DNA of 64,000 bases from Naegleria gruberi (Eukaryota): NCBI GenBank assembly GCA_000004985.1, contig GG738858.1; one strand, given 5' to 3'. Of the stretch, positions 3,328-57,501 are shown one piece after another. The translations under genes and the position numbers were made by a program. How positions within the stretch are numbered: position 1 is the stretch's first letter; each line of letters starts with the position of its first letter. The notes below the pieces were generated by a model, which was not told the origin of the DNA, did no database searches, and saw only the letters and a list, made by a program, of their open reading frames with translations.

Positions 3328-4470
3328 ATGAAAATCTCCATTGCTGTGGTTGGTAGTGGCTTGAGTGCCTTGTCTCTTGTTAAGAAATTAATTTCTAATC
3401 CAAAATCTTCCTCACTTGTTGATGGAATCACACTCTTTGAAAAATCTAGAGGAGTTGGAGGACGAATGGCAACGAGAAGAGCAACATTGGATGGAAAAAC
3501 GGCTTATTTCGATCATGGAGCACAATATTTCACAGTCAGAAGTGAACAATTCAAGGAGCAAGTAAATCAATGGATCGATCAGAAACAAGTAATTTTATGG
3601 GATGATCCTATTGTATCATTAGAGAATGACATGACAATTAGGACAAAATCCGCCCAACTTGGCAGTTTGAGTGATAATAACTCTAACGACTTGATTTCAA
3701 GATATATTTCAACAAGTAATGGTATGAATGCTCTTTGTAAATCAATGAAATCAGAGATTTTAGACACAGCCAAAATTTCAAATGTTTATGTCAATTTTGA
3801 AATGGAAAAACTTGTGAAAACAATCTCAAAAGACATCAGTGGAAAGTGGAAAGTTGGGCTAGTTGACTCGATTTATGAACAGTTATTCGATTTAATAATA
3901 CTTAGTTGCCCTCCAGAACAAACAGCACAATTACTTCAAACAACAGAGCATCCAACCAATTTGTTAACTAAAGTTGAGAAAATGGAAATGTATCCATGTT
4001 GGTCAATGATGATTTCTTTCCCAACAAAACTTAATCAATCAACCATTAAGGGAGGAGCATTTGTTAATATGGATAATTGTTCTATATCTTGGATATGCAA
4101 TCAATCAAGCAGAAACAATGAGCAACAAGATAGAGAGATGTGGGTTGTTCATGCTTCCAAATACTGGTCTTCTACCAATTTAGAAAAATCCAGTACTGAA
4201 GTTCAACATATTCTATTCAATGATTTTATGAAACTATTAGAACGTTTTGAAAACAAGAATGGGTCTGAAATTATTACACAAGCTGCTGATCATGTCAATG
4301 TTCATAGATGGAGATATTCTATTCCATTTTCAACAAATTCAACCTACTCTGTAAGTGAATGGTATAATGATGGAATTGCCTGTATTGGTGATTGGACACA
4401 ACAGGGAAGAGTCGAAGGGGCTTACTTAAGTGGAGTTGAAATGGCTGATTTCTTAATTTCAAAATTGTAG
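3328..4470 (+). CDS. Renalase-like FAD/NAD(P)-dependent amine oxidoreductase
   Basis: Rossmann GxGxxA N-terminus (AVVGSGLSAL), FEKSRGVGGRMATRR and DHGAQYFT motifs matching the renalase family; C-terminal GDW/GRVEGA FAD-binding segment. Confidence 0.65.
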   Translation: MKISIAVVGSGLSALSLVKKLISNPKSSSLVDGITLFEKSRGVGGRMATRRATLDGKTAYFDHGAQYFTVRSEQFKEQVNQWIDQKQVILWDDPIVSLENDMTIRTKSAQLGSLSDNNSNDLISRYISTSNGMNALCKSMKSEILDTAKISNVYVNFEMEKLVKTISKDISGKWKVGLVDSIYEQLFDLIILSCPPEQTAQLLQTTEHPTNLLTKVEKMEMYPCWSMMISFPTKLNQSTIKGGAFVNMDNCSISWICNQSSRNNEQQDREMWVVHASKYWSSTNLEKSSTEVQHILFNDFMKLLERFENKNGSEIITQAADHVNVHRWRYSIPFSTNSTYSVSEWYNDGIACIGDWTQQGRVEGAYLSGVEMADFLISKL

Positions 4471-4496
4471 TTTATTTCAGTTTGTTTTTTAATAAT

Positions 4497-5873
4497 TTAA
4501 TTCTTCTTCAATAAAGCTTCAACACTTTCACGGAAAACTCTAGTATGGACATCAACATCTTCTTCAGTATGGTTAACACAAATTAAAGCCATGTTGTGGA
4601 ATGGTGTCATCAAAATACCACGATTAAGGGCATACAAGTGCATATATTGGTCCAATTCAAAGTCACAAACAGCAGCAGCTTCTCCACCATTGACTGGTTC
4701 GGTTGGTCTAAACCAATATTCAGTACGACAACCAAGACGTTTAACAATCCAAGGTAAATTGAAATCAGCAATAACCTGCTCAACACCTTCACAGAATTTC
4801 TTTGCCAGAGCAATGGTATATTCATAATTTTCTGGTGTAAGAATATTTTCCAATGTTGCACGCATTGCAGAAACTGAAAGAGCATTACCAGCCAAAGTAC
4901 CACCAATACCACCAACATCAATACCTTCAAGTTGAACAGTTTCAGATAAACGTCTGGCAACTTCGTGACTCAAACCATAAACAGCAGTTGGAACACCACT
5001 ACCAATAGCCTTACCAATAGTGAACAAATCTGGCTTTAATCCTAATTCCTTAGTCAAACCTCCTGGACCAGCAGAGATGGTATGAGTTTCGTCGATAATC
5101 AAAAGAGTACCATATTTAGTAGTGAGTTCACGGAGCTTATCTAAAAATCCTGGTTGTGGGAGAACAATACCAATGTTTGTCATGGCTGGTTCACACAAAA
5201 CAGCAGCAACATCACCAGGAGCCAAAGCTCTTTCCAAAGCTTCAACATCATTAAATTCAACAACCTTTGTGGTATTTGTTGGATTGGTTTGTGGACCAAT
5301 ATTTGTAGCACGACATTCAGCAGTAACACCATCATCAGCAAGGGTGACAAAAGCTTCATCAACAGTTCCGTGATAGCAATAGTTGAAAACAAGGATCTTT
5401 GGACGTTTGGTAATATGTCTAGCAATACGTAAAGTGAATCTGTTGGCATCAGTTGCAGAAACAGCAACTTGCCAGTATGGAAGACCAAAACGCTTCTTTA
5501 AATCATCACCAACCCAAATTGCATTTTCGTTTGGTAACATATAAGTAATACCATTATTTAATTGTTTTGAAACAAAATCAACGACAACATCAGGAGAGTG
5601 GCCAGTCATGGAACCAGTATCACCAAGGCAAAAATCGATAAATTTAACATCATCCAAGTCGGTAAAGTGACCTCCTTTAGCTTGTTTAACAAACAATGGA
5701 TGACCACCAGTCCACTTCTTCATCCAGTGCATTGGTACACCATCAAGAAGAGAGTTCTTAGCTCTTTCAAAGGCGTCACGACACTTTGGGTGATTCTTCA
5801 AGAACAAAGCTTCTTCTTCAGCATAGAGCTTCTTGAGATGTTCTCTATCGATTTGAACAAGTTGTTGAGACAT
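4497..5873 (-). CDS. Class-III PLP aminotransferase (glutamate-1-semialdehyde aminomutase-like)
   Basis: LIIDETHT and GKAIGSGVP(T)AVYG motifs typical of HemL-like class III aminotransferases; 458 aa, intronless. Confidence 0.75.
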   Translation of the reverse strand: MSQQLVQIDREHLKKLYAEEEALFLKNHPKCRDAFERAKNSLLDGVPMHWMKKWTGGHPLFVKQAKGGHFTDLDDVKFIDFCLGDTGSMTGHSPDVVVDFVSKQLNNGITYMLPNENAIWVGDDLKKRFGLPYWQVAVSATDANRFTLRIARHITKRPKILVFNYCYHGTVDEAFVTLADDGVTAECRATNIGPQTNPTNTTKVVEFNDVEALERALAPGDVAAVLCEPAMTNIGIVLPQPGFLDKLRELTTKYGTLLIIDETHTISAGPGGLTKELGLKPDLFTIGKAIGSGVPTAVYGLSHEVARRLSETVQLEGIDVGGIGGTLAGNALSVSAMRATLENILTPENYEYTIALAKKFCEGVEQVIADFNLPWIVKRLGCRTEYWFRPTEPVNGGEAAAVCDFELDQYMHLYALNRGILMTPFHNMALICVNHTEEDVDVHTRVFRESVEALLKKN

Positions 5874-5961: not shown

Positions 5962-7555
5962 ATGCCTACACATCAGCCAAGCGCAAGTTTCTCCAACCAC
6001 GAATCTCTGGAGATCTCTAACCCGCAAGTCTTGCCATCCACTCCAATTGCTGTTGATTGCGAAGAAAGCAATTTTTTCCAAGACCACAAGAAAAATCCAT
6101 CTAAACATTATGTAATTGTTATGGTAGGATTGCCAGCTAGAGGAAAATCCTACATTGCCAGACAGCTAACCAAATATTTGAACTGGTTGAATATTGATTG
6201 TTCAATTTTTAATGCTGGAGAGAAAAGAAGAGAAATGCTAGGAGCTGGGCAATCTTCTTTCTTCTGGGATAAGAACAATTCAGAAGGGCAAGAACAAAGA
6301 AAGAGGATTGGTCTTGTTACTCTTCAAGAGTTGATTGATTGGTTAATGTTGGATGAAACTGAAAACGAGGAATCCTCAAAGAAAATGAAATATGGTGGTG
6401 GGAATTGTGCTGAGGAATATACAAAAAGAGAGATCAAATGTGCAATTTTTGACGCAACAAACACAACCAGAGAACGAAGACAAATGATTATTGATCATTT
6501 GACAGACAAAAATCTACCAAGACCTTTGGAGCCAAATCATATTATTTTTGTGGAATCTATCTGTAACAATCCACAAATTATTGAAGCCAATGTAAGGGAT
6601 ATTAAAATCAAGTCTTCAGATTACAAAGGTGTTTCTGCAGAACAAGCAATTAACGATTTTATGCAAAGAATCAAAGCCTATGAACAAGTATATGAAACTA
6701 TTTCAGACGATGAGGAAAAGAGATTAAGTTATATTCAAATGATAGATATTGGTAAAAAATTCATCCTTAATAGAATTGGTGGATATGTACCTGGAAAAAT
6801 TAATCAGTGTTTAATGAACATTCATTTAGCTCCAAGAGTAATATGGCTTTCAAGACATGGAGAAAGTATGGATAATACAATGGGATTGTTAGGAGGAGAT
6901 TCAAACTTGACTGAAAAAGGTCAATGCTATGCTAAAGTATTATATAGATTTGTTAAGAGGATGCAAGAAGAGAGAAGGAATCAAGAAATATCAATCGAAA
7001 AACCACAATTGGACAATATGATGGTTTGGACTAGTCTTTTAAAAAGAACACAACAGACATCCTTCCATTTTAAACATGATGAAAACTTCAAAGTTGTTCG
7101 TTGGAGATGCTTAAATGAGCTAGATGCTGGCGTTTGTGAAGGAATGACATATGAAAGAGTGAAAGAAGAGCTTCCTCATGAATATGAGGCCAGAGAGGCT
7201 GACAAATTCAGATACAGACCACAAAACGGAGAAAGTTATTTAGATATGATTTATAGAATTGAACCAGCCATTGCTGAACTAGAAAGACAGAGATGCCCTC
7301 TTTTAATAATTGGTAGGTTTATTTTAGGTTTAATTTTCAATTAATCAATACTCTCAAAAAGGTCATCAAGCTGTAAATCGTATATTGTATTCATATCTCA
7401 CTGGACTACGTCCAGAAACTTGCACAAGACTTCCAATTCCATTAAACACAGTTATTGAAATAATCCCTAACGCATATGGGGTGGAGGAAAAGAGATACGA
7501 TTTAAATCAAGAGGTACAAAAAGAATACGAATTAATTATGTCTCAAAAGAAATAA
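5962..7555 (+). CDS. 6-phosphofructo-2-kinase/fructose-2,6-bisphosphatase
   Basis: GLPARGKSYIARQLTKYLNW P-loop, RHGES phosphatase motif; 2 exons (5962..7312, 7362..7555) joined across a 49-nt GT-AG intron, giving ...LLIIG-HQAVNRILYSYL; start taken as MPTHQ (the ORF-table start at 5902 lies 30 bp from the neighbouring gene's ATG). Confidence 0.85.
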
Positions 7556-7556
7556 T

Positions 7557-8552
7557 TTAATTTTTGGTCTCTTTTGAAATTTGTAAGGGAATTGGAAGAT
7601 TTCTTCTCATCATCATTTTGCTTTTTTTACATTCAGTTATTACACAAAGAGTGTGGAACCAATTATTAAATATTCCCTTATTATAGTTTCTCTTATTCTT
7701 GTTAACGTATTCATAAGTTGTTTGACCAGAAGAAATTAGAAACGAATGGAACACACTTAATGATCCAACAAAAAATTGTGAAAGGAAAATGTAAATCATA
7801 ATAATAATTCCTCCAATTGAATATCTTATTGAATTCGAAACCTTATCCAAAACCACATCATTCAAATTAAAATAATATATCCAAACTAGAACTGTGTGAG
7901 CCACACAAACCAAAATCACAAACCATGAAGTGATAGTGGTACTAAAAATAAATAATATGAATGATCTGTAGTTTCGTCTGCCAATACAAGTGCCAGTCCA
8001 AGGACAGTGATGATCAAACTTTTCTACACAATTATCACATCTCCTGCAATGAGAGGCCCTTGGGGGACGATATATTTCACACGTAGCACAGTATTTAAGC
8101 TCAACAACGTCCTTGCTGTTTAAATAAACTTTTTGGAAGGGTGGAGGTTCCATTTTTCTTGAATTGTTTTCGATTGCACCTGCAATGTTTTTGTCAAAGT
8201 ATTTTCTTCTTGGAATAATGCCTGGATCCGTAAAGCTTGTATAGAATAGGCCAACCATCATCAATATAAATCCAATCAAAGGTAAAACTAACAACACAAC
8301 CCCAACAGCAGGATGAATGAACAAAATAAAGTGTGGCATTATTACAGGGCCATAGGCTATTGCAGGGAGAAAAATTAAAACAAGTGTAATAATGAACAAT
8401 TTTCTATCGGGCCCGAGAATCAATCTTCCTTGACAACAAAGTGTATTATTTCCTATCCATCCTTCATATAACTTTAATGTTGTGTTGGCTATGATGTTTG
8501 TGGCTTCGGAATGTTCTGCATCTTGCTTTTGTTCTAACGCGACTGTGCTCAT
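7557..8552 (-). CDS. DHHC-type palmitoyltransferase
   Basis: CxxCxxxxxxRxxHCxxCxxCVxxFDHHCPW zinc-finger DHHC motif, 4 TM helices; ORF-table start 8567 is TTG, ATG at 8552. Confidence 0.85.
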   Translation of the reverse strand: MSTVALEQKQDAEHSEATNIIANTTLKLYEGWIGNNTLCCQGRLILGPDRKLFIITLVLIFLPAIAYGPVIMPHFILFIHPAVGVVLLVLPLIGFILMMVGLFYTSFTDPGIIPRRKYFDKNIAGAIENNSRKMEPPPFQKVYLNSKDVVELKYCATCEIYRPPRASHCRRCDNCVEKFDHHCPWTGTCIGRRNYRSFILFIFSTTITSWFVILVCVAHTVLVWIYYFNLNDVVLDKVSNSIRYSIGGIIIMIYIFLSQFFVGSLSVFHSFLISSGQTTYEYVNKNKRNYNKGIFNNWFHTLCVITECKKSKMMMRRNLPIPLQISKETKN

Positions 8553-8571: not shown

Positions 8572-9411
8572 ATGGGGAAACACGCACAACTAGTGATTGG
8601 ACCTGCTGGCTCCGGAAAATCGACTTATTGCCAAACAATTCAAGAACATGGTAACAATACAAAGAGAGTTATTCATGTTGTAAATTTAGATCCTGCGGCT
8701 GAGGAGTTTAAATATCAATGTGCATTTGATATTCGTGACTTGGTAACATTGGAGGATGTCATGGAGGAGTTTCAACTTGGTCCGAACGGAGGTCTAGTTT
8801 ACTGTATGGAATATTTAATGCAAAATTTAGAAGATTGGTTCTCGGAAGAATTGAGTGATTATGAGAATGACTATTTAATCTTTGATTGTCCAGGTCAAAT
8901 TGAACTTTACAGTCATGTACCAATCATGCAGTTATTTGTAAAGGAGTTGGAACGAAGAGGATATAGGGTTTGTTGTGTCTATTGTATGGACGTACAATTT
9001 ATAGAAGATGTTACAAAATATATCAGTGGTATTACCCAGGCCCTTTCTGCAATGATTCAATTCGAGACTCCTCATGTCAATATTTTCACAAAATGTGATA
9101 CTCTAAAAGGAAATAAGGAAAGATCAAACATTTTAGAAAAGCTAAAAGTTCCTGACAAAACTGAGCTTCTCTACGCTTTAGAGAAAGAAACCAATCCCCA
9201 TAAGAGAAATTCATCTTTCTCCAAACTCAATCATGCAATTGTTTCATTAATTGACAACTTCAACATGGTTGGATTTCTTGAATTGGATATTACTGATGAA
9301 GAATCGATAGAATACATCCTCTCCTATGTTGATATGACTATTCAGTATGGTGAAGATGAAGAGGCAAAGGAACCAAAAGAAGAAACAGAAGAAAGCACTC
9401 AAGATGAATAA
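8572..9411 (+). CDS. GPN3: GPN-loop GTPase 3
   Basis: MGKHAQLVIGPAGSGKSTYC, VVNLDPAAE and GPNGG motifs; near-colinear with GPN3 over 279 aa; true ATG at 8572 (ORF-table start 8482 is not ATG). Confidence 0.9.
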   Translation: MGKHAQLVIGPAGSGKSTYCQTIQEHGNNTKRVIHVVNLDPAAEEFKYQCAFDIRDLVTLEDVMEEFQLGPNGGLVYCMEYLMQNLEDWFSEELSDYENDYLIFDCPGQIELYSHVPIMQLFVKELERRGYRVCCVYCMDVQFIEDVTKYISGITQALSAMIQFETPHVNIFTKCDTLKGNKERSNILEKLKVPDKTELLYALEKETNPHKRNSSFSKLNHAIVSLIDNFNMVGFLELDITDEESIEYILSYVDMTIQYGEDEEAKEPKEETEESTQDE

Positions 9412-9425
9412 ATTAATTCATCAGG

Positions 9426-10901
9426 TTAACTTTTTACTACGCTCTTTTTACTACATTGATTCCACCTGATGTGACTGTTCCAGTGAACCAATTTGCATGG
9501 TGATTGTATTTTGATATCTGACTGTTCCTGTTTGTGTAAGTTAGATCCTGATATTGGATCTTTACAAATATCACAAAGAACCTTAACGCCACCAGCAAAT
9601 TGTTGAAGCTCAGTTGCTAGTTCAGGTGTTATATCCGAAATATTTGAATAATTTCTGTGAATATGTAAGAGTTCTTTCTTTAGAGTCTCATTCATTGGTA
9701 ATTTTGGTAATGGTAGAGTATAAAGGAGAAGAGACATGATAATATCTAGCTTTGGAGTTTTGTAAAAAGGATATTTGGTTGAACTCGCATCTAAATGGTC
9801 TTTGATCATCTTGTACATTTCTAATTCTTTCATATTGTTGATAAGATCAAAGAAAATATACTTGTGTTGTACGCATGTGGACAATTCATTCAATAAGGTA
9901 TCACAGAATGAAAATAATAAATCTCTAACAACTCTGGATTTTGACTCCAAACCAGTAGGATTGTACATTATTGATGGAACACTGTACATACACGACTGTA
10001 TTTCAGGATCTGTTTCTCTTTCATAATCTTCTAACCTTATAATCTGATCCATGTATTCATTAAGAGTTGTTGCCTTTAGCAATTGTTCTCTTCTTGTTGG
10101 TAGATAATCATTCAATAAAAATAGACAAAATCGTCTCCAACTCATAGATGCATTTGATTTGAAGAGACGATAAAACATTGAACTTGCATTTTCAGAAGGT
10201 CTCATTGTAAAGTATCCACGCTTATTATTTGTTTGCTTGTCTATCAAAATCATGGCCTCATACAATTTCTCAACTGAAACCCAATAGGATGGATACTTGA
10301 ATCTTGCAACATCCAATAATAAAACCATATCTTCATCAGGATTATATCCTCCAATAGGACTGAAGTGGCCATCACCTGTTTGATCTAGTGCTTTTCTTGA
10401 AAAGTTTACAACAATATGAAACTTTTGATGTTTACATGAATCAATAATATGCTGTCTAAATTGTTCAATAGTACTATTTCTGAATAACTGAACATCAAGT
10501 CCAGAACAAACAGAAAGGCACCAAAATTGTTCCATCTGCAAACCTTTGGTTAATACTTGGTCTCCAGAAACACAACAATTCATTAACAGATTTTCATCAT
10601 AATATCTCCAAACACCTTTCCAAACTTGATTTGGATCACATTGTAAAGCATTTAAAATCATACTTAAACTTCCTAACCCGCAAAAAGCAGGTTCTTGTTG
10701 GGTGTGGAACTGTTCAGCTAATGAAAAATAATTTTCCATATATTGTTGTTTTAAACTTGATCTAAATAATTCTCTTCCTTTTTCCGAACTGAATGGTATT
10801 AATTTGTCAGATAATTTTCTCTTGTAAAACGAAACAGCACAAGTTGGTGCTGATTTAAAAGACCTCAAAACTTGAGTCGATTTAAATAAATTATTTGTCA
10901 T
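9426..10901 (-). CDS. Phytochelatin synthase (glutathione gamma-glutamylcysteinyltransferase)
   Basis: N-terminal catalytic domain with QQEPAFCGLGSLSMILNAL and downstream His/Asp region characteristic of PCS; 491 aa. Confidence 0.85.
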   Translation of the reverse strand: MTNNLFKSTQVLRSFKSAPTCAVSFYKRKLSDKLIPFSSEKGRELFRSSLKQQYMENYFSLAEQFHTQQEPAFCGLGSLSMILNALQCDPNQVWKGVWRYYDENLLMNCCVSGDQVLTKGLQMEQFWCLSVCSGLDVQLFRNSTIEQFRQHIIDSCKHQKFHIVVNFSRKALDQTGDGHFSPIGGYNPDEDMVLLLDVARFKYPSYWVSVEKLYEAMILIDKQTNNKRGYFTMRPSENASSMFYRLFKSNASMSWRRFCLFLLNDYLPTRREQLLKATTLNEYMDQIIRLEDYERETDPEIQSCMYSVPSIMYNPTGLESKSRVVRDLLFSFCDTLLNELSTCVQHKYIFFDLINNMKELEMYKMIKDHLDASSTKYPFYKTPKLDIIMSLLLYTLPLPKLPMNETLKKELLHIHRNYSNISDITPELATELQQFAGGVKVLCDICKDPISGSNLHKQEQSDIKIQSPCKLVHWNSHIRWNQCSKKSVVKS

Positions 10902-12778: not shown

Positions 12779-13349
12779 ATGAGTGAAAACAAACTTGTGC
12801 TGCCATCCATTTCTGGTATGCAAATAGAGTCACGTACTGAAAAATCTTTCCCAACGGATTTTTCATCCAAAGTTAATGTTTGTATTTTCGGATTTTCAAA
12901 AGAGCAAAAGGAACCTTCCAAGACATGGCAAAAAATATTTGCTGATTTAAAACGTGATGGGGATTGGAAAGAGAAGGATATTGACTTTAATGTATTTCCT
13001 TTGTTAGTACGTTTTGAAATTTTTAGTAATTAATTATTCTTCTTTTAGCCTGAAATGTATTGGTTATTGGCAAGGTAAATTTACATTTTTATTATTTATT
13101 TGACTTTAGAATAGAGGAATTTTTGAAGCTGTAAGATATGGGACTGTGGATCAAATTATTAGAGAAAGAACCTATTTGATTCACACAGACCAAGTTAAAT
13201 TTAGACAAAGTTTACAAGTAGATTCAGATGAAAAAATCCTCATAGCTGCATTCCAAAAAGATGGAACTTTACTTTACAAATCAACTGAAGGTTCTTATGA
13301 AGCAAGCAGAGGAGAGGAAGTGATTGGAAAATTTAATGAATTATTATAA
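12779..13349 (+). CDS. Hypothetical small protein (3 exons)
   Basis: Exons joined across 42-nt and ~40-nt introns: ...NVFPLL-PEMYWLLAR-GIFEAVRYGTVDQIIRERTY...GKFNELL; no family recognised. Confidence 0.4.
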
Positions 13350-13376
13350 ATTATATTTTAATATTATTATTACTAT

Positions 13377-14186
13377 CTACACATAAAGCTCTGTACAGGC
13401 TTCCAAGAATTGATCAAAAGTAAAAGTAGCTTGTCCGTTTCTGTAAAAGTCTTTTGGTTGGAAAATATTTCTGACAATACCAACATAAACACAAAGTTCA
13501 ATGTATCCATCAAAATTTAAAGATCCCTTTTTTTGTGTATCAACAGTTTGGAATATCTTTTGCAACACAATTGGTGAAATTCTGTAGCCTGACTGAGCAA
13601 GTGCTCGTGAGATTTCATCAAAAGATAAACTTCCAGACTTGTCAGTATCTACAAACTCAAATCCTTGCTTCATTTGAAGTAAATATTGATGTAATTGCAT
13701 AAATTCCTCAAAATCAATTTCAGCATTATTATTCCTGTCAAACATTTTAATTAATCTTTTTGCACCTGTCAAAATTCTTGTACCTCATTCAATTAATAAA
13801 GACTTACATCTTTCACTGAAGACTTTTCCTGTAAATTCAGATCCTGGTTGAGTGAGTGCTTTTTGAAGCTCTATCCAAGTAATTTTTCCAGATCTATCCA
13901 AATCAACAGCATCAAAAAACGGTCTAAGTGGGTGAGATTGCATTTGTGGTTGATAAATACCATATTGTGATTGTTGATGGTTTCCGTATTGTTGTGGTTG
14001 CTGTTGATAACCTCCTACTTGTGGTTGCTGTGGTGGTTGATTGTAACCTCCTACTTGTGGTTGTTGATAACCACCATATTGTGGTGGAGGTTGTTGGTAA
14101 CCGCCATATTGTGGAGGTTGTTGATAGCCTCCTGTCTGTTGATAACCTTGAGGTGTGCCTTGTGGAGCTCTAAAGCTTTGATTCAT
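13377..14186 (-). CDS. Penta-EF-hand (ALG-2/peflin-like) calcium-binding protein
   Basis: N-terminal GGYQQPPQY repeats followed by EF-hands (DLDRSGKITWIELQ, DTDKSGSLSFDEI); 2 exons with a 43-nt intron near 13773-13815. Confidence 0.8.
13960..14165 (-). repeat. In-frame coding tandem repeat (GGYQQPPQ units) inside the PEF gene
   Basis: Direct repeats of ggttgctgttgataacctcctacttgtggtt-like units visible in the DNA. Confidence 0.6.
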
Positions 14187-14957: not shown

Positions 14958-15677
14958 TCAACAACTCTTGAAAAACTTTACAATAAATAAATATTCACCT
15001 TGAACCCATTTCTTTAAAACAATCTTACTTGCGAAACCTCCATTCTCTTCAAGACTAAGCAATTTCATAACCTCTTGAGGTCTATTATCTTCAATAAGAA
15101 CGAAATAAAAAACACCATCTCTTGACAAAATGTCCTTAATCATTGGAATGAATTTATCAATAACTTCTCTGCCATCAATACCACCTGCATAGGCTGCTCT
15201 GACGTCATTATGTCCCATTTCGTATTGTTCGGATGGAACATATGGTGGATTAAATATAAGTAAATCTATTTTGTTCTTCATTCTTTGTTTAAATGCTGAA
15301 TGAAAATCGGTAAGGACAACATCACAACAAATTGGGACTTGTTGTGGTGTTATCTTATTATTTTCCAATGTTTTTCTTGTCATCAAAGCAGCATTTGGAT
15401 TAATATCGGAGCAAAGTAATAAAAATGAATAAGATGCATTCATTAATTGATGATTATTGTTTAATAATTTATAAAGAAATGTTGTAACATATCCACTTCC
15501 GCTTCCTATTTCAAGACAACATTTTAATCCACATTTCGAATTGAGTAAATGATTTACAATATAATCTTTTTCCAAAGCATCCACTAACAAATAAGTATCA
15601 TCATTAAATTCATAAACAAGTTTGAAATCGGAAGTTTTCATGTGGCCCATATTGGGGTCGTTGATACTTTTTGGCAT
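14958..15677 (-). CDS. HemK/N6AMT1-family protein methyltransferase (Mtq2-like)
   Basis: FNPPYVP motif and SAM-binding LEIGSGSG; ORF-table start 15734 is GTG, first ATG at 15677. Confidence 0.75.
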   Translation of the reverse strand: MPKSINDPNMGHMKTSDFKLVYEFNDDTYLLVDALEKDYIVNHLLNSKCGLKCCLEIGSGSGYVTTFLYKLLNNNHQLMNASYSFLLLCSDINPNAALMTRKTLENNKITPQQVPICCDVVLTDFHSAFKQRMKNKIDLLIFNPPYVPSEQYEMGHNDVRAAYAGGIDGREVIDKFIPMIKDILSRDGVFYFVLIEDNRPQEVMKLLSLEENGGFASKIVLKKWVQGEYLFIVKFFKSC

Positions 15678-15708
15678 TTTTATTAATAATAATTGCAAAT
15701 ATTGTAAA

Positions 15709-16681
15709 TTATCCACAACACCCTTTCTTCCCACTTGTAGGAGAGGTGTTATTTGAAGGATTTTGAAGTTGAGATATTGGTACTAGTCCAACATTACTTG
15801 GTTTAATTTCAGAGTTTTTAGCCTTTCTTTTTTCAAATTCTTCTACAATAGTGTCAAAAATAACATCAATATTCACTCCATCCTTTGAACTTGTTACAAA
15901 ATGTTTGAATACAACTCTATGTGATGACGTGAATTCCTCTACTTGTCTTTCAGATATTACAGATTTTCCAAGATCAGATTTAGTACCAACTAGTATAATG
16001 AAACAATCCTCTGCTGGAGCACTCGTTTCCAATTTATGCACCCATTTAGAAACATTTTGAAAGGTTCCTTCCTCAATCACACTATAACAAACAAGTGCTA
16101 CATTTGTGTGACGGCAGTAGAAAGAGCTATTCCATTTGAATGAATATTTAATGAACGAATACTAACCTCAAAGAATCATATCTTTCCTATTGATGAGTTA
16201 AATGATCAAGAATTTTCAATTAGCGTCAAATCTTACCTGACCAGCTTTGATGATTGATTTAGATGAATTTTAAAGCAATTACTAACCAGTATCCCAAAGT
16301 CCTAATTCTAAATGTTTTCCGTTTTTTGTTGGAATGGCTTTCTTCAAACATGTTAATAAATTCTTTCTCTCAAATACCTACTTTAAAGAATGAAGCGCCA
16401 ATAGTGGATCTTGTATTTCCGAATGTATTATTTAAAAATCTAACCAACTTTTGATCATTGTAGATTTTTACTCGTTGATGACTTACCAAACTGATTTTTC
16501 TTAGAATATTTAAATTATTTAAAAATCATACCTGGTCTACTACAGTGTTATTGTATTTACTATTAATCCCTACCTTTCCTACACCACTGTCACCTGTTTT
16601 ATTGGTTACTCAATCAGGATTTGTTTTAAACGTACCAAGCATGACAACTTTGATGTCCACTCCTTCATTCTTTTTGCTCAT
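15709..16681 (-). CDS. Rab5-family small GTPase, multi-exon with micro-exons
   Basis: Spliced reading MSKKNEGVDIKVVMLG-DSGVGK-T-SL-LVRFLNNTFGNTRSTIGASFFKV...WDTAGQERYDSL...; the C-terminal exon is ORF 15709..16080 ending GCCG; the 5' region has five 37-42-nt GT-AG introns. Confidence 0.7.
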
Positions 16682-16691
16682 TTTTTAAAAA

Positions 16692-17513
16692 ATGTCTAAC
16701 GTTGTCTTTCATTGTTCGATAGTAAAATTGCCAGATGAAACTGTGGTTGAAAACTCCTTTGATATTGATAAACCAATACACGCCCAACTCGGAAATGGGC
16801 AATTAAAGTTTTTAGATATGGAAGAAAAACTTAGTGTGATGAATCCAGGAGAAACATGTGAGATTTTAACATTAGGAGAGGATCTTGTTAAATATAAAAT
16901 TTCCATCAAACTATTACGAAAATATTCGAGTGATGGCAATGCTACGGAATGGGATTATTCAGATGAAGAGAGCTACAATATAGCTCTAAACAAAAAAGAA
17001 GATGGCAACTTATTCTTCTCTCAAAATAAGAATATTTCAGCTTCCAGATGTTATCGAAGCGGAATTAAACATGTGAGAAGGATCTCCAAATTGAAATGGG
17101 ATTTAAATAATAGAAAGGCTAGGGATTTGTTGATCACTCTGTTCAATAATCTACTCACATGTGAGTTAAAACTTAAAAGATACTCGAATGTTGTAAAGTT
17201 TAGTACTGAATGTCTTGATAATATCGGAGAAAATGTTAAAAGTTATTACAAAAGAGGTGAGGCAAATATGAATGATGGAAATTATTCTTTGGCTAATGAA
17301 GATTTCAGAAAAGCTAAAGAGCTGCTACTCACAGTTGATTCAAATGCTGAAATTTCTGTAATCAGTAAGGTTATTACAGGCTCTCCTAAGACTATTGCAG
17401 CAGATATGTACGACAAGATGATCAAACTATTAGATTCGTCAATTCAAAAGTGCACTAAACTGGATCAAGATTACAATCAAAACATGAAAAACATGTTTAA
17501 AAAGATGTTTTAA
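16692..17513 (+). CDS. FKBP-like domain plus TPR protein (AIP/FKBP-type co-chaperone-like)
   Basis: C-terminal TPR segment KKEDGNLFFSQNK...YKRGEANMNDGNYSLANEDFRKAKELL resembles the TPR region of FKBP4/5 and AIP; N-terminal ~110 aa is PPIase-like. Confidence 0.55.
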   Translation: MSNVVFHCSIVKLPDETVVENSFDIDKPIHAQLGNGQLKFLDMEEKLSVMNPGETCEILTLGEDLVKYKISIKLLRKYSSDGNATEWDYSDEESYNIALNKKEDGNLFFSQNKNISASRCYRSGIKHVRRISKLKWDLNNRKARDLLITLFNNLLTCELKLKRYSNVVKFSTECLDNIGENVKSYYKRGEANMNDGNYSLANEDFRKAKELLLTVDSNAEISVISKVITGSPKTIAADMYDKMIKLLDSSIQKCTKLDQDYNQNMKNMFKKMF

Positions 17514-17514
17514 T

Positions 17515-18910
17515 TTAAGGACATTTTTTTGCTAAACATTGAGCAGCACCCATTTCATCAAACTCTGATTTAGAAATCCACATAGATTGAAAAGATCCTA
17601 AACTAGCAAGTATTGATCCACCAATGAATGAAGCATACTTTCTTTCTTGTAGTTGAGCCACTGCTGTTTGCATTGTTGATTGGGTTGAGGAGTTACCCAT
17701 AGATGTGGAAAGTGTGTGAATATTTGCAGATATTTTTGTGTTGAGTGGATGTTTAACTTTAACATTATTTGGCGCCATTCTTATTAATTCGTGTTCATAC
17801 CTTGTTGGTACACCAGGAATTAATGTATTTCCACCAACTAACAAAATATTTGAATATAATTCCTTCCTAAGATCCACGTCACATTTGTTGATAGAATCAC
17901 ATGTCAATTTTGCAAGTCCATATTCATGGTTGAATAAACGTTCACAAATTGAGAATCTTTCAAGACCAATTTCAATATCGTTTCCATCATTTAACTCAAA
18001 GCTCACAAGTGGTGTGTTTCCTGTTTGAACAGCTCCATCCTCTGATGCTCTTAGTAGATTGATCTTCATGTCTCCAACAATTCTGTTGATTGAATAATCA
18101 TTAAAAGATTGTGTTAATCCGTCAATATGGTGTTCTACAATTTTAGTGGATTTGGAGCTTGGTTGTTGAGAGCTTCTTTGCTTAGTAAATTGATGAGGAG
18201 CAAGGATGTCCTTACCTCCCCTCTTTGTTTTAACTAGATTTCTTAGATCTTCGTCCAATACTTTTCCACAAACTTTAGTAGTTTTGATTGTGCTTTGACG
18301 AAGAGCCAAACCGTCATGCACAGATGTGACAGTTGTAGCATTATGACCACTGTCAACAACTAGGGCTGTGTATTTTCCATTTGCAAAACAGCTTAAAACT
18401 GGTTGTTTGGACAAGAAAAAACTTGGAATATTACATTTCTCAAAAACTAGAGATGCTAACTTTTCTCTTCCTGATGAAGAACAAAGAGGATCTTCTGACA
18501 TTAAAAGTGGGTGTTCGTTCGGTTTCACACCTAGTCTTTCGTCATAAATATAATTTAAAGCCTTCTCAAAATAATCAATGTTTTGAACTAAACTTCAATA
18601 AGTCAAATAATAATAAATTATCAACATACTCTCTCCAGTATCTGAATTAAAGATGTTTTGTACTTCCATGCCAGGCCTTGCGAAGGAAATTTCCTTGTTA
18701 CCCACATAATAGCTAGAAATTTTTGATTTATCATCACTGTCAAATACAGTACCAATCACCTAGTAATGTTGGTTAGAAATAGAATCTCGGAAAACTTACT
18801 GATGGGATGATCGCCTTTGGATTTTCTTCTCCTGCAAATCCAGCTTTAATTGTGTGAGTACCGACATCAATAACAACGGCTCCAACCTCGTCTCCACCAA
18901 AAGTGTTCAT
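17515..18910 (-). CDS. Actin-related protein Arp4/ACTL6 (BAF53)-like
   Basis: 3 exons (41- and 43-nt introns): MNTFGGDEVGAVVIDVGTHTIKAGFAG...; actin fold motifs (LVVDSGHN, ILLVGGNT), Arp4-like C-terminus ...LAKKCP. Confidence 0.75.
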
Positions 18911-23230: not shown

Positions 23231-23697
23231 TTATTAATAAAGAAGCTTCCTTTTTAATGTCCTCTCTAAAAAATGTCATCCTTTTTTCGGCCTAGTCTCC
23301 TCTCTAGAAGATCTGTTCCAAGTATTGATTATATTATTAAGCATCATTCAGAAAACAAAGCGGATAACCTTATCAAAGAAAATGAAAAATTAATTAATGA
23401 GGAAAAACTAGCAACCCATTCTGAAAATTGTTTCAGTTGTAATAATTTAGAATTGGATGATGAAAATACTACAGAAAATCCTGATCTTATAAGCGGAATT
23501 GAAAAAGAATAATATCAATCCTCAACAGTATATCTGTAAAAAGACATAGCTATTCTACCAATTGGTCAAAATACTCCAAACAATCCATCTGGTTTAATAA
23601 ACAAAAATTCTTTTGGTGTATCAGATTTCAAATCTATTCCAATTTTTTGTTCAATTTTTTAAGACGACTAAATTTTTCTCTCTTCATTACTTTATTT

Positions 23698-27475: not shown

Positions 27476-28093
27476 ATGGGATTTGAATTTAGAAGATTTA
27501 AACCACTCACTTCCGAAGAGTTTCATCACAACTTTACTGAATATCAAAAAATGGAAGAGAAAAATGATGTGTATTTAATTGTTGTGGATAAGGAGGGAAA
27601 TAGTGTTATTCCCGAAACTATTGGAATTAAACTTGCTTACATGTCACAATTTGAAATTAAAATTCGTAAAAAGAGAAAGAAATCTGGCATTGAAAAATGG
27701 AAGAAAATTCACTGTTTTTCAGAGAAGGTTGATTTATCTGATCAGGATAATCTACTCAAGAGTATAGAGAACCAATTAAAGATGAATCAAGTTTCGGATC
27801 TGGCACTCAGTTCAAATCATCACAGGGTTGTCTCAGCTAAAACTTGTAAAATTAGAAGAAATTATAGAAATTATGAGATTGCTTTCTTTTCATTGAAATT
27901 TGAGGATATGAACGAAACTCTTTATTTTAAATCAGTAAATATTGAGGGAGAGAAAAAGTTTAAAAAAATTGATAAGCAACTAGTTGAAAAGGATCTACCA
28001 CTCTCATCTCAGGATGCTCAGGTTTTAACTTGTGGTTATCCAGAATTGCTTTTAAGGAAATATTTGAGTGTAAAATCAAATATTCTAAATTAA
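27476..28093 (+). CDS. Hypothetical protein
   Basis: 205-aa ORF with an aaaaATG context; no recognisable domain. Confidence 0.4.
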   Translation: MGFEFRRFKPLTSEEFHHNFTEYQKMEEKNDVYLIVVDKEGNSVIPETIGIKLAYMSQFEIKIRKKRKKSGIEKWKKIHCFSEKVDLSDQDNLLKSIENQLKMNQVSDLALSSNHHRVVSAKTCKIRRNYRNYEIAFFSLKFEDMNETLYFKSVNIEGEKKFKKIDKQLVEKDLPLSSQDAQVLTCGYPELLLRKYLSVKSNILN

Positions 28094-29540
28094 ATAGTCC
28101 AAGCTTCCAATAATTCCTCAAGTCTAACTCTAGGATTCTTTCCATCACTATCAAATTTAATCTTACTTGCAATAGAACCAGAATTTTCATGTTTGAACAA
28201 CATGACTTTGGATCTCATATCTTGATCTTCTTCAAGATCATTCAAGAATGCATCATAATCATTTCCTTCAGGGTCCATACAGAAATGGTGTAACTTCCAA
28301 ATTCTTTGAGTTTCCCATTCATACTTCTTTTTAACAATAATAACATCTGGTAAAACAAGTTTCTTGTAACTTGCAAGGTCATCACTATTGAGATTAGCAT
28401 TCTTCAAATCATATCCATAAACAGTATCTCCAACTTCTAGCAATTGAGTAATGTGACAGAATGTTTGAACATCTGGAGCAACACCTAATTCTGATGTCTT
28501 GACAAGAGACACTTCACTGAGTTGGAATCTGCCAGCTTGAGCAGAAATTGGCCTTCCTTTTTGATTCTTTTTCACCTCAATATCATTGATAGTATATTCA
28601 GCAAGTTGGGTAACTGACAATAGAGCTCTAAATGGTGATTGGAAATAGTTTTGAGCAGTAATTTCAAAATCTATAATTTTTCGTATTAATTGATATTTGA
28701 ATAATTTAAAACATACTCTTGAGTGTGTATGGATCAATGAAGAATAAGCTATTTGTCACCTTATAACAAATAACAAGAGGACTATTTTCAAATTTCAGAA
28801 ATCAATTAAAATTGATTAAATACATACCCAATTTGTCCACTACTGTTAAATAATCTTTGTGGTAAACAAACCAAATCTCCTACACAAATTGGAGCTATTT
28901 CAATGAAATATTGCTCATTGTGTTCAGTTGTAGGTCCTTCCAATGATGATGCCCCTCCAACAGCACCAATTCCTCCTCCTAATTTACCTTTTTGGAATGC
29001 ACCTGTCATTACTGACTTATTTTCCAAATCTCTTATTGGCATTAAATTATTGATTAATTTGATAAACTTGATGACATTTGAACCTTCTTCTTGTGATTGA
29101 TTTTCTCCACCTCCTTCTTTTTGCATTTCCTCGTTCAATTCAGAATAGGCATTTGGTTTATAATAAATATCAAAACCATGAGCAACTTTTTCAAAATGTA
29201 AATGTGGGAATTTTCTTGTAATTTGATGTTTTAACATTAATTGTTCAAAGAAGAATAAATTTCTTTCGTGAGATATCTTTTGACGAATTTGTACTACCGG
29301 CTTATCGGAAGAGTCAACAGTAACCTTCTTCTTTTTCTGATTAACACGATTGGCCTTCTTTCTCTTTTTTGAAGTGAAAGCTTGTTCTTGATAATTATTA
29401 CCTTCATGTACTTCAGTATCTTCAAATTCTGAAATATTCATCATGTCCACATTCTTTCTCTTTTGAGTGTTTGCCTTTTCCGATGGCTGTTTCTTGGTTG
29501 GTGGTTTTTTGTGGCCTTTACCAGTTGCTTTTTGTCTCAT
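28090..29540 (-). CDS. Hypothetical basic, nuclear-type protein (at least 2 exons)
   Basis: K/R-rich N-terminus (KKPPTKKQPSEKANTQKRK); upstream ORF 28806..29540 appears to splice via gtatgt to the downstream ORF 28090..28737; exact junction unresolved; stop overlaps the stop of the 27476 gene. Confidence 0.4.
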
Positions 29541-45673: not shown

Positions 45674-47968
45674 ATGTCCTCCTCATCTCTAGTACTGAAT
45701 TCCATAGAGGAATCTGGAAGAAATATTACACTGGATGAATTTAGAACATCGATTTCTTCACCACATGTTGGCACGCCTGGAGAAGGAATGGATATTTCCA
45801 TTCACTTCTCAATGGAACCAGTAGTTAAAACAACACCCGCTCATGTCTATGCCCTTAGTGACGGTGAAGGATCCATTACAGAGAGACATTTTCCTTCGTC
45901 TCCTCTTTCTACATCAAGTAGTCATGTAAAACGAGTTTCTAAAACTCTCGTTGCTCTTTCTAAATGTATACTAGTGAATGGTAATAACAACAATGTTTCT
46001 TCCCCTAGCTCACCAACTAAAAAGGAGCAATTGAATGGAAGTTTCTATGCTGATAATGATTGTGTTATTGTAGTTCCTCCAGGATCTGTTGCTGAGTCTT
46101 TCAATTCATTGAGTCCTCGTGCTCCAGAACTATCACCAATATTGTCGAGTAGTGGTAACATTGATGCTAAACTGGTGATTGATAGACTTACTGAAATGAT
46201 TAAAAATAATGAAATGCCCTCAACGAGAAAAGTGACACCTCAAACATATTCCTGCCCAAGCTCTCCAAAGTCTCCTTGCTCTGACTCTTGTAGTACATTC
46301 AGTCAGGACGATGATTGTGATGGTACTCTCATTGGACCGAGTGTTATACAATGTATTACTAATGAAATGTTATGGCCTCAACACTCTTTTTGTTCCTTAT
46401 GCCATTTAGCGGCCAAGTATAATAGTGTAGAAGTTTTGGGATGGTTAAAGGATTGTTGTTGTGATGAGGAATGTACTGGTAGCCATTCAACTACTACTGA
46501 AATGCTTGTAGAACATACGGTTCCAACTCCTGTCGATGCGTCAGCTGTTCAATCTGTCTCCCCTTACTCTATCAACGATTGTCAGTCACCACTCTCAGGC
46601 AAGCCAACTCCAACAAATGATACTTTTTCTACTAACTCTGTAATTTCCAACACTACCTCTTATATGTCTGGTCATTTTCATAATAATGATCATCAACATA
46701 ATTCCTCTTCATCGCCTTCTCATCAAGCTCACCACTCTAATAGCTGTTTGAATAGACAGAGAGAGTTATGGAGTATTGTAGATAATCAGTCCTCATCACC
46801 ATTAATGTATGCCGTTCATTCAGGATCTCATGATGCTTCCGTTTTTCTTTGTTCTCAGCCAACTGTACAGAATCAACTCAATTTTACACGAGATAAGTTT
46901 GGAAATCTTCCCATTGTTCTAGCATTGAAAAAGAGAGATTTTGAGTTGTGTGACATTCTTCAATTATTTGGAGCCAAGATAGATACTATAGGTGGAGTTC
47001 AATTGGGAGAAAGTTTACTTCATTCTGCTTTGAGAGAAAGAGATGTGACTACAGCCGAATATTTAATAAGAAAGAATCCAAAAATTATACTGAAGAAAAA
47101 TCAAAGAGATGAAATCCCATTATTTAGATGTCTTACAGATAATAGACCTACCAGTGTGAATAAGCTAATTACCATTAGTCTTCCTGGAGATTCTCAAAAA
47201 TCTCCCAGTCTTAGATCGAATAGGGTTTCAATTAGAGAGACTCATAAGGTTGGAGAGCACTCTCTTGCACTTTCTCAATTTTTGCAGAAATCAACCGAGT
47301 GGATTGATATCGAGCTCATTGAAAAGTCAATCAGCTCTAAAAATTCGTTTGGAAGAAACTTACTTTTGGAGGCTGTTGCAATCAATGATGTTGACTCGAC
47401 TAAGGTGATTTGTGAGTTTATCAGCCAAAACTATTCTTCATTTGAAACACAAAGCAATTCAAAAAGAGTCAAATCTTACGAGGACATTATTTTAGATACA
47501 GATAAGATTTACTTTATGAATATAATTCAAACAGCAGTTTCTTCAAGCTTACAAGTTATACAGAACAGAAGAGAGGAATTTTTATATGTATTTGCTGGAT
47601 TGAAATGGTTGATAGACTGGTTAGATAGCATGTTTAATCAACCATTCAGCACAATATCTTTGCATGGTATGTTGGCCTTCAAAGATTCGAGAGGGTTAAC
47701 TGCTTTTGATATGGCGAGTAAGGATAAGGAATCTTGTGCGTTCAGTACAATAATGTCTCAATTTCTTGTTGAGACAGAATCAAGGTGGAAACCAACCAAA
47801 GCACAACACCAATCAATGGTTCTTACAAAACGACGTTCATCTATTAGTTTATCTGCCAAAAGTACTTCCTCAACTCCCAACAGTCCTTCTTCTCCATCAA
47901 GTGGTGGACTATTCTCAAAGCTCAAATCTAAATTTCACAAGCACACATCTTCAAGGCAGTTAAAATAA
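45674..47968 (+). CDS. Ankyrin-repeat protein with S/T-rich N-terminal half
   Basis: ANK-like repeats in the C-terminal half (LMYAVHSGSHDASVFL..., GESLLHSALRERDVTTAEYLIRK); 764 aa, intronless. Confidence 0.6.
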   Translation: MSSSSLVLNSIEESGRNITLDEFRTSISSPHVGTPGEGMDISIHFSMEPVVKTTPAHVYALSDGEGSITERHFPSSPLSTSSSHVKRVSKTLVALSKCILVNGNNNNVSSPSSPTKKEQLNGSFYADNDCVIVVPPGSVAESFNSLSPRAPELSPILSSSGNIDAKLVIDRLTEMIKNNEMPSTRKVTPQTYSCPSSPKSPCSDSCSTFSQDDDCDGTLIGPSVIQCITNEMLWPQHSFCSLCHLAAKYNSVEVLGWLKDCCCDEECTGSHSTTTEMLVEHTVPTPVDASAVQSVSPYSINDCQSPLSGKPTPTNDTFSTNSVISNTTSYMSGHFHNNDHQHNSSSSPSHQAHHSNSCLNRQRELWSIVDNQSSSPLMYAVHSGSHDASVFLCSQPTVQNQLNFTRDKFGNLPIVLALKKRDFELCDILQLFGAKIDTIGGVQLGESLLHSALRERDVTTAEYLIRKNPKIILKKNQRDEIPLFRCLTDNRPTSVNKLITISLPGDSQKSPSLRSNRVSIRETHKVGEHSLALSQFLQKSTEWIDIELIEKSISSKNSFGRNLLLEAVAINDVDSTKVICEFISQNYSSFETQSNSKRVKSYEDIILDTDKIYFMNIIQTAVSSSLQVIQNRREEFLYVFAGLKWLIDWLDSMFNQPFSTISLHGMLAFKDSRGLTAFDMASKDKESCAFSTIMSQFLVETESRWKPTKAQHQSMVLTKRRSSISLSAKSTSSTPNSPSSPSSGGLFSKLKSKFHKHTSSRQLK

Positions 47969-47974
47969 ACAATA

Positions 47975-57496: not shown

Positions 57497-57501
57497 TTTT
57501 T
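57497..57501 (+). terminator. Pol III T-run terminator of the 5S gene
   Basis: TTTTT immediately after the 5S 3' end. Confidence 0.7.

Follow-up and report, generated by a model that had tools for sequence, protein, structure and literature searches.

Where can two convergent mRNAs end when the stop codons of their genes are a single nucleotide apart, and does any resulting antisense overlap have a function? This question is raised by the FKBP/TPR and Arp4-like genes on a nuclear scaffold of Naegleria gruberi NEG-M. It was addressed within a window of 64 kb, the whole stretch of DNA analysed here, in which the gene models were built by hand. The two genes and their junction are organised as follows:

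16692 to 17513, plus strand: FKBP/TPR gene (AIP-like peptidyl-prolyl isomerase), 273 aa, intronless.
17515 to 18910, minus strand: gene for an Arp4-like (ACTL6A-like) actin-related protein, with about 3 exons, of which the terminal one is 17515-18594.
17511 to 17517, both strands: TAA-T-TTA junction, with the FKBP/TPR TAA at 17511-17513 (plus strand) and the Arp4-like TAA, read as TTA on the plus strand, at 17515-17517 (minus strand), gap of 1 nt.

FKBP/TPR has orthologues with 47-56% identity over 99% of its length, which bear the PPIase_AIP and TPR Pfam domains and among which the C-terminus ..YNQNMKNMFK..F* is conserved. The Pfam Actin match of the Arp4-like protein extends to profile position 409 out of 410, at the penultimate residue. 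In the PDB it matches Actin-like protein 6A best, and its C-terminus ..GAAQxLxxKCP* is conserved. Both C-termini are conserved across N. lovaniensis, N. fowleri and an environmental Naegleria-like contig, in which the gap between the two stop codons is 3, 6 and 4 nt, respectively. Counting N. gruberi, the gap is kept at 1, 3, 4 and 6 nt across four Naegleria lineages whose FKBP protein identity is about 52-56%.

A preliminary description of this DNA had listed seven convergent pairs with near-touching stops, and all seven were found in the sequence at the positions given there. The six other tight junctions are:

7553 to 7559: PFK2/DHHC, again TAA-T-TTA; PFK2 stop at 7553-7555 (plus strand), DHHC stop at 7557-7559 (minus strand), gap of 1 nt.
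47966 to 47977: ankyrin-repeat/nSMase-like; ankyrin stop at 47966-47968 (plus strand), nSMase-like stop at 47975-47977 (minus strand), gap of 6 nt.
9409 to 9428: GPN3/phytochelatin synthase (PCS); GPN3 stop at 9409-9411 (plus strand), PCS stop at 9426-9428 (minus strand), gap of 14 nt.
4468 to 4499: renalase-like/class-III aminotransferase; renalase-like stop at 4468-4470 (plus strand), aminotransferase stop at 4497-4499 (minus strand), gap of 26 nt.
13347 to 13379: 12779 gene/penta-EF-hand (PEF); 12779 gene stop at 13347-13349 (plus strand), PEF stop at 13377-13379 (minus strand), gap of 27 nt.
28090 to 28093: TTAA with overlapping stops; 27476 gene stop at 28091-28093 (plus strand), NMD3-like stop at 28090-28092 (minus strand). 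Inside TTAA, 2 nt are common to both stop codons, and the overlap of the CDS intervals is 4 nt.

Such junctions could be annotation artefacts, one ORF of each pair being spurious or its true stop lying elsewhere, and the preliminary description had itself raised the mis-annotation of one pair member. Three partners (FKBP/TPR, the 12779 gene and the 27476 gene) indeed have no Pfam match at E<=0.001-0.01, and the protein database holds no N. gruberi entry for FKBP/TPR or the 12779 gene. However, orthologues of these three in other Naegleria species cover 94-99% of their length with matching C-termini. The 12779 gene (exons 12779-13006, 13049-13074 and 13115-13349) encodes a 162-aa product that gave no match in a PDB search and that matches its N. 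lovaniensis orthologue through ..NELL*. For the 27476 gene, we found an N. gruberi entry of 205 aa with 99% identity, plus a paralogue and an N. lovaniensis orthologue located at a contig end. For the other eleven genes, support comes from domains that extend to the C-terminus or from identity with proteins already deposited. Models identical to deposited N. gruberi proteins are those of PFK2, spliced over a 49-nt intron (7313-7361) into 514 aa (EFC46521), GPN3 (8572-9411, EFC46522), the class-III aminotransferase (EFC46639) and the ankyrin protein (EFC46533). The Exo_endo_phos profile is reached to position 225/225 near the C-terminus of the nSMase-like protein, and the Amino_oxidase profile to 440/443 at residue 374 of 380 of the renalase-like protein. 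The DHHC Pfam domain and the Phytochelatin domain lie within uninterrupted ORFs (7557-8552 for DHHC and 9426-10901 for PCS). The PEF gene, with a 42-nt intron spliced, encodes EF-hand domains up to the C-terminus, and the NMD3 OB-fold domain is present in the NMD3-like product of the gene ending at 28090.

The junctions themselves were also searched elsewhere. The ankyrin/nSMase-like junction is identical in a metagenome strain of 98.7% identity. A scan of the JGI metagenomes with GPN3 matched only relatives of 51-60% identity from other eukaryotes, with no PCS or DHHC gene adjoining. The recurrence of the FKBP/Arp4 junction across four lineages argues further against an artefact, which we regard as extremely improbable. 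Mis-annotation is borne out for none of the 14 genes; judged from C-terminal Pfam domains, deposited proteins and orthologue C-termini, all 14 are real and terminate at the stops listed above. The public N. gruberi proteome appears to miss two conserved partners, FKBP/TPR and the 12779 gene product.

Inter-gene spacings were then compared between orientations. Among the 15 convergent junctions definable in the window, 7 have a gap of at most 27 nt (range -4 to 27 nt), against 1 of the 25 tandem or divergent spacers (Fisher p = 0.002). The median spacer is 35-43 nt for convergent (n=15), about 198 nt for tandem (n=16) and about 496 nt for divergent genes (n=9), the tandem and divergent distances resting on the approximate start codons of the hand-built models, and one convergent junction (PRP or g23270 versus epimerase) being ambiguous at 35, 185 or 467 nt. 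Convergent gaps are shorter than the other spacers (Mann-Whitney p = 6e-5 to 3e-4). Annotated N. lovaniensis loci gave a convergent median of 37 nt versus 176 and 155 nt for the other orientations, and convergent gaps in N. fowleri were 3 and 6 nt. The larger spacers of the window are partly occupied, one by a tRNA gene and one by a 5S rRNA gene. Other orientations are squeezed too: only 19 nt separate one pair of ATGs, and 31 nt separate one stop from the ATG of the following gene. The C-terminal codons of the tight pairs are not more AT-rich than those of other genes (GC of 0.32 vs 0.33, p = 0.82) and their stop choice is not distinctive (12 TAA, 2 TAG).

With such gaps, any 3' UTR of normal length must oppose the UTR, the stop or the last codons of the partner, as had been proposed in the preliminary description. 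The very short UTRs that it invoked agree with the median of 39 nt obtained for N. gruberi by direct RNA sequencing (PMC11529991). In the same data, AAUAAA sits about 15-20 nt upstream of cleavage, and 11-13% of stops are "dual-use", sharing bases with AAUAAA, and have a 22-nt median UTR (PMC11529991). Published RNA data also indicate a U-rich downstream element at N. gruberi 3' ends. The following candidate signals were located at the tight junctions, with cleavage positions predicted from the published distances:

9407 to 9412, plus strand: AATAAA over the GPN3 stop (dual-use); predicted cleavage at about 9433, on or just inside the PCS stop and last codons.
47964 to 47969, plus strand: AATAAA over the ankyrin stop (dual-use); predicted cleavage at about 47990, within the last 4 or so nSMase-like codons.
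4471 to 4476, minus strand: AATAAA of the aminotransferase, in the spacer and abutting the renalase-like stop; predicted cleavage at about 4451, inside the renalase-like CDS.
4510 to 4515, plus strand: AATAAA, putative signal of the renalase-like gene, antisense in the aminotransferase codons Ala-Leu-Leu; predicted cleavage at about 4535.
17509 to 17514, minus strand: ATTAAA directly past the Arp4-like stop, covering the FKBP stop and last codon; weak candidate signal only.

For ankyrin, the distance used was the 22-nt median UTR of dual-use sites; for GPN3, this median was used together with the published signal-to-cleavage distance, and for the aminotransferase the latter alone. The predicted aminotransferase and renalase-like ends would give these two mRNAs about 85 nt of complementarity to each other. 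Candidate poly(A) signals embedded in coding sequence, another element of the preliminary description, are present on these two dual-use stops and, for the renalase-like gene, within the codons of its partner. AATAAA overlaps the stop at these 2 of the 14 tight-pair ends and at none of the other 12. Over the window, 4 of the 49 genes (GPN3, ankyrin, SNARE and CCCH) have such a stop, to be compared with the published 11-13%, which holds for any register.

Could the two mRNAs merely abut, a possibility already raised in the preliminary description, with cleavage a few nucleotides past each stop and a 3' UTR of about 0-5 nt? The unusual shortness of N. gruberi UTRs, both in general and at dual-use stops, goes in this direction. 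Nevertheless, a signal-to-cleavage distance of 15-20 nt implies a UTR of about 22 nt even when the hexamer lies on the stop, and five junctions leave a spacer of at most 14 nt common to two genes. Moreover, every stop codon is already complete in the genomic sequence and does not have to be created by polyadenylation. Absence of overlap is very unlikely in our view. From the gene positions and the published distances, we strongly infer that the mRNAs of the tight junctions would overlap by tens of nucleotides.

An AATAAA-based mechanism is visible in the sequence for only 4 of the 14 ends. The 10 others lack AATAAA within 70 nt, their first AATAAA being found at +166 to +1071 nt, or not at all within 1.5 kb. 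At the FKBP, NMD3-like, nSMase-like and PCS ends, no recognisable variant hexamer was found either. ATTAAA, AATAAT or TATAAA overlap five more tight-pair stops and their use is doubtful. For instance, the ATTAAA at 17509 to 17514 is not conserved in the other species compared, and AUUAAA is described in the literature as mostly a coding-sequence hexamer in N. gruberi. Near the FKBP and Arp4 stops, AATAAA is absent in all four lineages.

Ends of this kind might run hundreds of nucleotides through the partner, as long antisense read-through, up to the first usable signal. Besides the ten ends devoid of a nearby AATAAA, and the FKBP/Arp4 junction devoid of it in four lineages, this possibility draws on the frequency of AATAAA on the antisense strand of coding sequences, where 71 copies were counted in the window (1.47 per kb) versus 5 on the sense strand. 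Yet the published median UTR of 39 nt speaks against it, and several of these ends carry one-off variants on the stop (AATAAT, TATAAA, ATTAAA). About 60% of all window genes likewise have no AATAAA within 45 nt, so that other signals must be in general use. Long read-through is unlikely. Near stops AATAAA is enriched, being found at -2 to +45 of 18 out of 49 window stops vs 7-11% expected (p about 2e-6), and the 45 nt that follow the stops of tight pairs have a higher U content (0.44 vs 0.36, p = 0.005). In assembled public runs, no RNA-derived contig was recovered for any tight-pair protein looked up; the sole RNA-seq (Logan) contig found, that of SAM synthetase, extends just 7 nt beyond its stop codon and has no poly(A).

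These results are quite probably explained by tight junctions being the passive end state of Naegleria genome compaction. A convergent spacer needs no promoter and so deletions could shrink it until they reach both stop codons, the extreme case being two stops sharing one TTAA. The very short 3' UTRs of Naegleria mRNAs would make this tolerable. The cleavage and polyadenylation signal could be placed on the stop itself, in the few spacer bases, or opposite the last codons of the partner, on a strand that is naturally rich in U and from which AATAAA is not purged. Each mRNA would then terminate about 20-65 nt beyond its stop, inside the 3' end of its partner, and a stretch of tens of nucleotides would be complementary between the two mature mRNAs. 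In this scheme, the length of the UTR, the identity of the signal and its distance to cleavage are those of the literature, and the cleavage sites at the 14 ends are predicted positions. We infer that the overlap is a by-product without function.

The overlap could conversely have been selected, linking the expression of the partners through dsRNA feeding RNAi or through transcriptional interference and so keeping the pairs together. The adjacency and 1-6 nt gap of FKBP/Arp4 in four lineages are in line with this idea, and could reflect selection as an alternative to rearrangement simply having no room; candidate homologues of Dicer and of Argonaute exist in N. fowleri (PMC13315211). On the other hand, synteny with N. 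lovaniensis is not kept in 2 of the 3 comparable pairs, the aminotransferase and the 12779 gene having different neighbours there. Similarly, the PRP/epimerase junction spans 3-13 nt in two species vs 467 nt in the window. The partners are functionally unrelated, and compaction is by itself expected to conserve gene order as a side effect (PMC2387174). No excess of synonymous conservation was detected in the last 25 codons of FKBP (0.55 vs 0.42, p = 0.53) or Arp4 (0.33 vs 0.42, p = 0.62), as would be the case if these ends harboured no precise element. Selected coupling is unlikely on this evidence. It is likewise unlikely that the pairs are functional units with obligate 3' duplexes over stops and C-terminal codons, coupled by Dicer/Argonaute or by interference, in which FKBP/Arp4 would use a shared non-canonical bidirectional 3'-end element.

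Such tight packing has practical consequences. Gene finding and RNA-seq quantification in Naegleria must allow abutting or overlapping convergent genes, and unstranded RNA-seq mis-assigns reads at the 3' ends of tight pairs. In the design of N. fowleri transgenes, the few hundred bases past a stop are often the coding sequence of a neighbour and not "UTR". The junctions also supply a concrete set of genes whose 3' ends must be formed although no AAUAAA lies nearby. They do not overturn current understanding.

Tight convergent pairs are what one would expect to see in a densely packed eukaryotic genome and do not constitute a new kind of system. Our literature searches returned no account of convergent or antisense overlap specific to Naegleria. 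In compacted genomes such as those of microsporidia and nucleomorphs, the transcription of adjacent genes overlaps (Williams et al. 2005 PNAS, as cited in PMC2387174). As far as that citing account goes, they resemble Naegleria in having spacers down to a few bases, transcripts entering neighbours and a stable gene order as a side effect. Unlike them, Naegleria is neither a reduced parasite nor a relic nucleus but a free-living amoeboflagellate, with introns and thousands of genes. The limit-case packing of reduced parasites is also found in this free-living, gene-rich eukaryote. The overlap predicted in Naegleria concerns tens of nucleotides at 3' ends, whereas multigene or very long read-through is not implied. 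Giardia and Spironucleus combine a dual-use stop/poly(A) signal with ultrashort 3' UTRs, a feature also published for N. gruberi (PMC11529991) and matched by the AATAAA on the GPN3 and ankyrin stops; the signal is WGURAA with a cleavage distance of 8-9 nt in Giardia, versus AAUAAA and 15-20 nt in Naegleria. Owing to this longer distance, a dual-use stop in Naegleria would still push the mRNA end into the neighbour. Yeasts, plants and animals have tail-to-tail cis-natural antisense pairs, whose opposite-strand mRNAs are complementary at their 3' ends and for some of which a regulatory use, for instance through siRNA, is documented. There, it is generally long UTRs that overlap, with hundreds of nucleotides between the coding sequences, whereas in Naegleria the coding sequences nearly touch and the overlap must include the stops and the C-terminal codons.

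All seven convergent gene pairs that the preliminary description had reported as having almost touching stop codons were located in the sequence where it had placed them, and the observation is confirmed.

Stop-to-stop junctions of the seven tight pairs
FKBP/TPR and Arp4-like: gap of 1 nt, TAA-T-TTA
PFK2 and DHHC: gap of 1 nt, heptamer identical to that of FKBP/Arp4 (TAA-T-TTA)
Ankyrin and nSMase-like: gap of 6 nt
GPN3 and phytochelatin synthase (PCS): gap of 14 nt
Renalase-like and aminotransferase: gap of 26 nt
12779 gene and PEF: gap of 27 nt
27476 gene and NMD3-like: 2 nt of a TTAA common to both stops, CDS intervals overlapping by 4 nt

The window has a G+C content of 31-38%, and the ORF blocks treated as coding make up ~76% of it. 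Several ORF products were identical to Naegleria gruberi NEG-M proteins deposited from one 782,252-bp scaffold, namely SAM synthetase (EFC46648), EFC46525, ankyrin (EFC46533), aminotransferase (EFC46639), PFK2 (EFC46521) and GPN3 (EFC46522).

The genes and stops of the tight pairs are genuine in 14 of 14 cases. Pfam matches reached the extreme C-terminus of Arp4 (Actin, 409/410), nSMase-like (225/225) and renalase-like (440/443), and further Pfam identities among pair members were 6PF2K/His_Phos, DHHC, ATP_bind_1, Phytochelatin, Aminotran_3, EF-hands and the NMD3 OB fold. The closest PDB relatives of the Arp were Actin-like protein 6A. A 49-nt intron (7313-7361) joins the last exon of PFK2, yielding the 514-aa product EFC46521, and the two parts of PEF are joined across a 42-nt intron. 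The Pfam search gave no match at E<=0.001 for FKBP/TPR; orthologues sharing its C-terminus and bearing PPIase_AIP and TPR domains were found in N. lovaniensis, N. fowleri, Willaertia magna and an environmental contig. An N. lovaniensis protein of 162 aa matches the product of the 12779 gene, 26-nt micro-exon (13049-13074) included, as far as the terminal ..NELL*. For the 27476 gene, N. gruberi has a copy at 99% identity as well as a paralogue, and N. lovaniensis has an orthologue. A spurious ORF in each pair is ruled out by Pfam domains, deposited identities or orthologues for all fourteen; the mis-annotation envisaged in the preliminary description as grounds for rejection therefore fails.

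Very short spliceosomal introns of 40-49 nt were seen at 7313-7361, 13766-13807, 13007-13048 and 13075-13114, and the gene starting at 31716 and ending at 32440 apparently has several tiny exons. In the NMD3-like region (28090-29540, -), the OB-fold and C-terminal parts were seen and the Cys-rich N-terminal NMD3 domain was not found. The upstream ORF (28806-29540) combines a Lys-rich N-terminus with an NMD3-like '..DLVCLP..' stretch; the region may hold one spliced gene or two. FKBP/TPR (16692-17513, +) and the 12779 gene (12779-13349, +) are conserved in other Naegleria species, with no N. gruberi entry among their matches in a 5.8-billion-protein database. Both look like unannotated genes, possibly missed through abutting a neighbour. 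Between GPN3 and PRP, four plus-strand genes were found where the accession numbering leaves two slots only (EFC46523-4).

Spacer lengths were compared by orientation. The 15 convergent junctions definable in the window had gaps of 26, 1, 14, 27, 1, 35 (or 185 or 467), 43, -4, 202, 66, 141, 6, 208, 195 and 64 nt, with a median of 35-43 nt, as against estimated medians of ~198 nt for tandem stop-to-ATG spacers (n=16) and ~496 nt for divergent ATG-to-ATG spacers (n=9) (Mann-Whitney p = 6e-5 to 3e-4). Gaps of 27 nt or less were found in 7/15 convergent and 1/25 other spacers (p = 0.002). A like bias was obtained for annotated N. lovaniensis loci (convergent median 37 nt versus 176 and 155); elsewhere, convergent gaps were 3 and 6 nt in N. 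fowleri and 65 nt for the one in W. magna. Close spacing also occurs in other orientations. The divergent ATGs of DHHC (8552, -) and GPN3 (8572, +), the latter start being confirmed by identity to EFC46522, are separated by 19 nt (ttttactctgcacaaaaaa); the promoters and 5' UTRs of both must lie largely within the other gene. On the minus strand (15677-15711), the Rab-like gene has its stop at 15709, and the next gene, EFC46644, an N6-adenine/HemK-type methyltransferase, has its ATG at 15677, 31 nt downstream of that stop. An AATAAA ends 3 nt ahead of this ATG, so that the Rab-like mRNA should be cleaved within EFC46644 coding sequence.

RNA genes occupy part of two larger spacers. A tRNA-Leu(UAA) (58855-58937, -) is located where g57529 and an F-box gene converge, in a spacer of 195 nt, at distances of 36 and 76 nt from the two stops, and a complete, dispersed 5S rRNA gene (57379-57497, +; Rfam 106 bits) between the PaaI-like thioesterase gene and g57529. 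The long divergent spacer of the NOX-like and PaaI-like genes contains a two-copy tandem duplication (55025-56388; period ~733 nt, identity 96-100%), each copy carrying an identical 104-aa ORF (55341-55655, 56074-56388).

Direct RNA sequencing of N. gruberi gave a median 3' UTR of 39 nt and an AAUAAA signal 15-20 nt upstream of cleavage, with UGUA upstream and U-rich elements downstream; coding sequence avoids AAUAAA, which overlaps 11-13% of stops, the median UTR there being 22 nt (PMC11529991). In the window, 18/49 stops have an AATAAA beginning between -2 and +45, with 7-11% expected (p about 2e-6). Across ~48 kb of coding sequence it occurs 5 times in sense and 71 times in antisense, a 14-fold asymmetry, much stronger than that of ATTAAA in the same blocks (34 versus 53), in agreement with the published claim that AAUAAA is the only strong signal in N. 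gruberi.

AATAAA hexamers at the tight pairs
GPN3 and ankyrin: on own stop codon
Aminotransferase: 4471-4476 (-), in the spacer, abutting the renalase-like stop
Renalase-like: 4510-4515, antisense of Ala-Leu-Leu near the aminotransferase C-terminus

From the published distances, cleavage is predicted at ~9433 for GPN3, ~47990 for ankyrin, ~4451 for aminotransferase and ~4535 for renalase-like, each site falling in the stop or the final 2-12 codons of the partner; with these sites the renalase-like and aminotransferase mRNAs would be complementary over ~85 nt. Gene geometry and the published RNA data (PMC11529991) support the earlier argument that such stops would entail very short UTRs, signals in coding sequence and/or pervasive antisense overlap.

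For 10/14 tight-pair ends, no AATAAA was found within 70 nt of the stop; the FKBP, NMD3-like, nSMase-like and PCS ends showed no recognisable variant hexamer either, and AATAAA is missing from the FKBP/Arp4 pair in 4/4 lineages compared. Either these ends use non-canonical A/U-rich signals, or some of the mRNAs extend a long way into the neighbouring gene. U content downstream of tight-pair stops is 0.44 versus 0.36 elsewhere (p = 0.005) because A-rich coding sequence lies on the opposite strand, and the U-rich stretch could act as a downstream element. None of the tests revealed a specialised embedded element or an adaptation: the last 25 codons of FKBP and Arp4 showed no excess synonymous conservation, and G+C was unshifted in the C-terminal codons of tight pairs. 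Separately, a Logan contig, probably RNA-seq (L002), shows an Illumina adapter and immediately after it AA and the ATG of SAM synthetase (1-30), which hints at a 5' UTR of ~2 nt; its 3' end departs from the genome 5 nt past the stop, and it may be an artefact.

The Rab-like, FKBP/TPR, Arp4, SNARE, PRP and epimerase genes form a syntenic block in N. lovaniensis and also in N. fowleri, where SNARE was not called. In N. gruberi a single nucleotide separates the FKBP and Arp4 stops; the corresponding gap measures 3 nt in N. lovaniensis, 6 nt in N. fowleri and 4 nt in an environmental Naegleria-like contig, with spacer sequences unrelated between lineages. In Willaertia the neighbour differs and the gap is 65 nt. 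The aminotransferase and 12779 genes have other neighbours in N. lovaniensis than in N. gruberi. The PRP and epimerase stops are 13 nt apart in N. lovaniensis (locus L005, 12281-12295), 3 nt in N. fowleri (locus L006, 12471-12475) and 467 nt in N. gruberi (23231-23697). Tight packing is genus-wide, single pairs not being uniformly kept. The extra N. gruberi DNA carries an orphan ORF (23273-23512) with an AAAATG context, coding-like codon usage and no Pfam match, and may represent an insertion or a gene particular to this lineage.

Any 3' duplexes could conceivably have a regulatory use in Naegleria, since N. fowleri has candidate Dicer and Argonaute homologues (PMC13315211), but the present analysis lends such a use no support. 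Our literature search found no paper describing convergent stops that nearly touch, or antisense overlap of 3' ends, in Naegleria itself. Such stops should not surprise a specialist; the tight pairs are useful for annotation and as loci for studying AAUAAA-independent 3'-end formation. They represent, in a free-living heterolobosean, a further case of an outcome already known to follow from genome compaction. Dual-use stop/poly(A) signals are established in Giardia and Spironucleus and reported for N. gruberi (PMC11529991). Microsporidia and nucleomorphs are established cases in which compaction forces transcription to overlap, with conserved gene order as a side effect (PMC2387174, citing Williams et al. 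2005).
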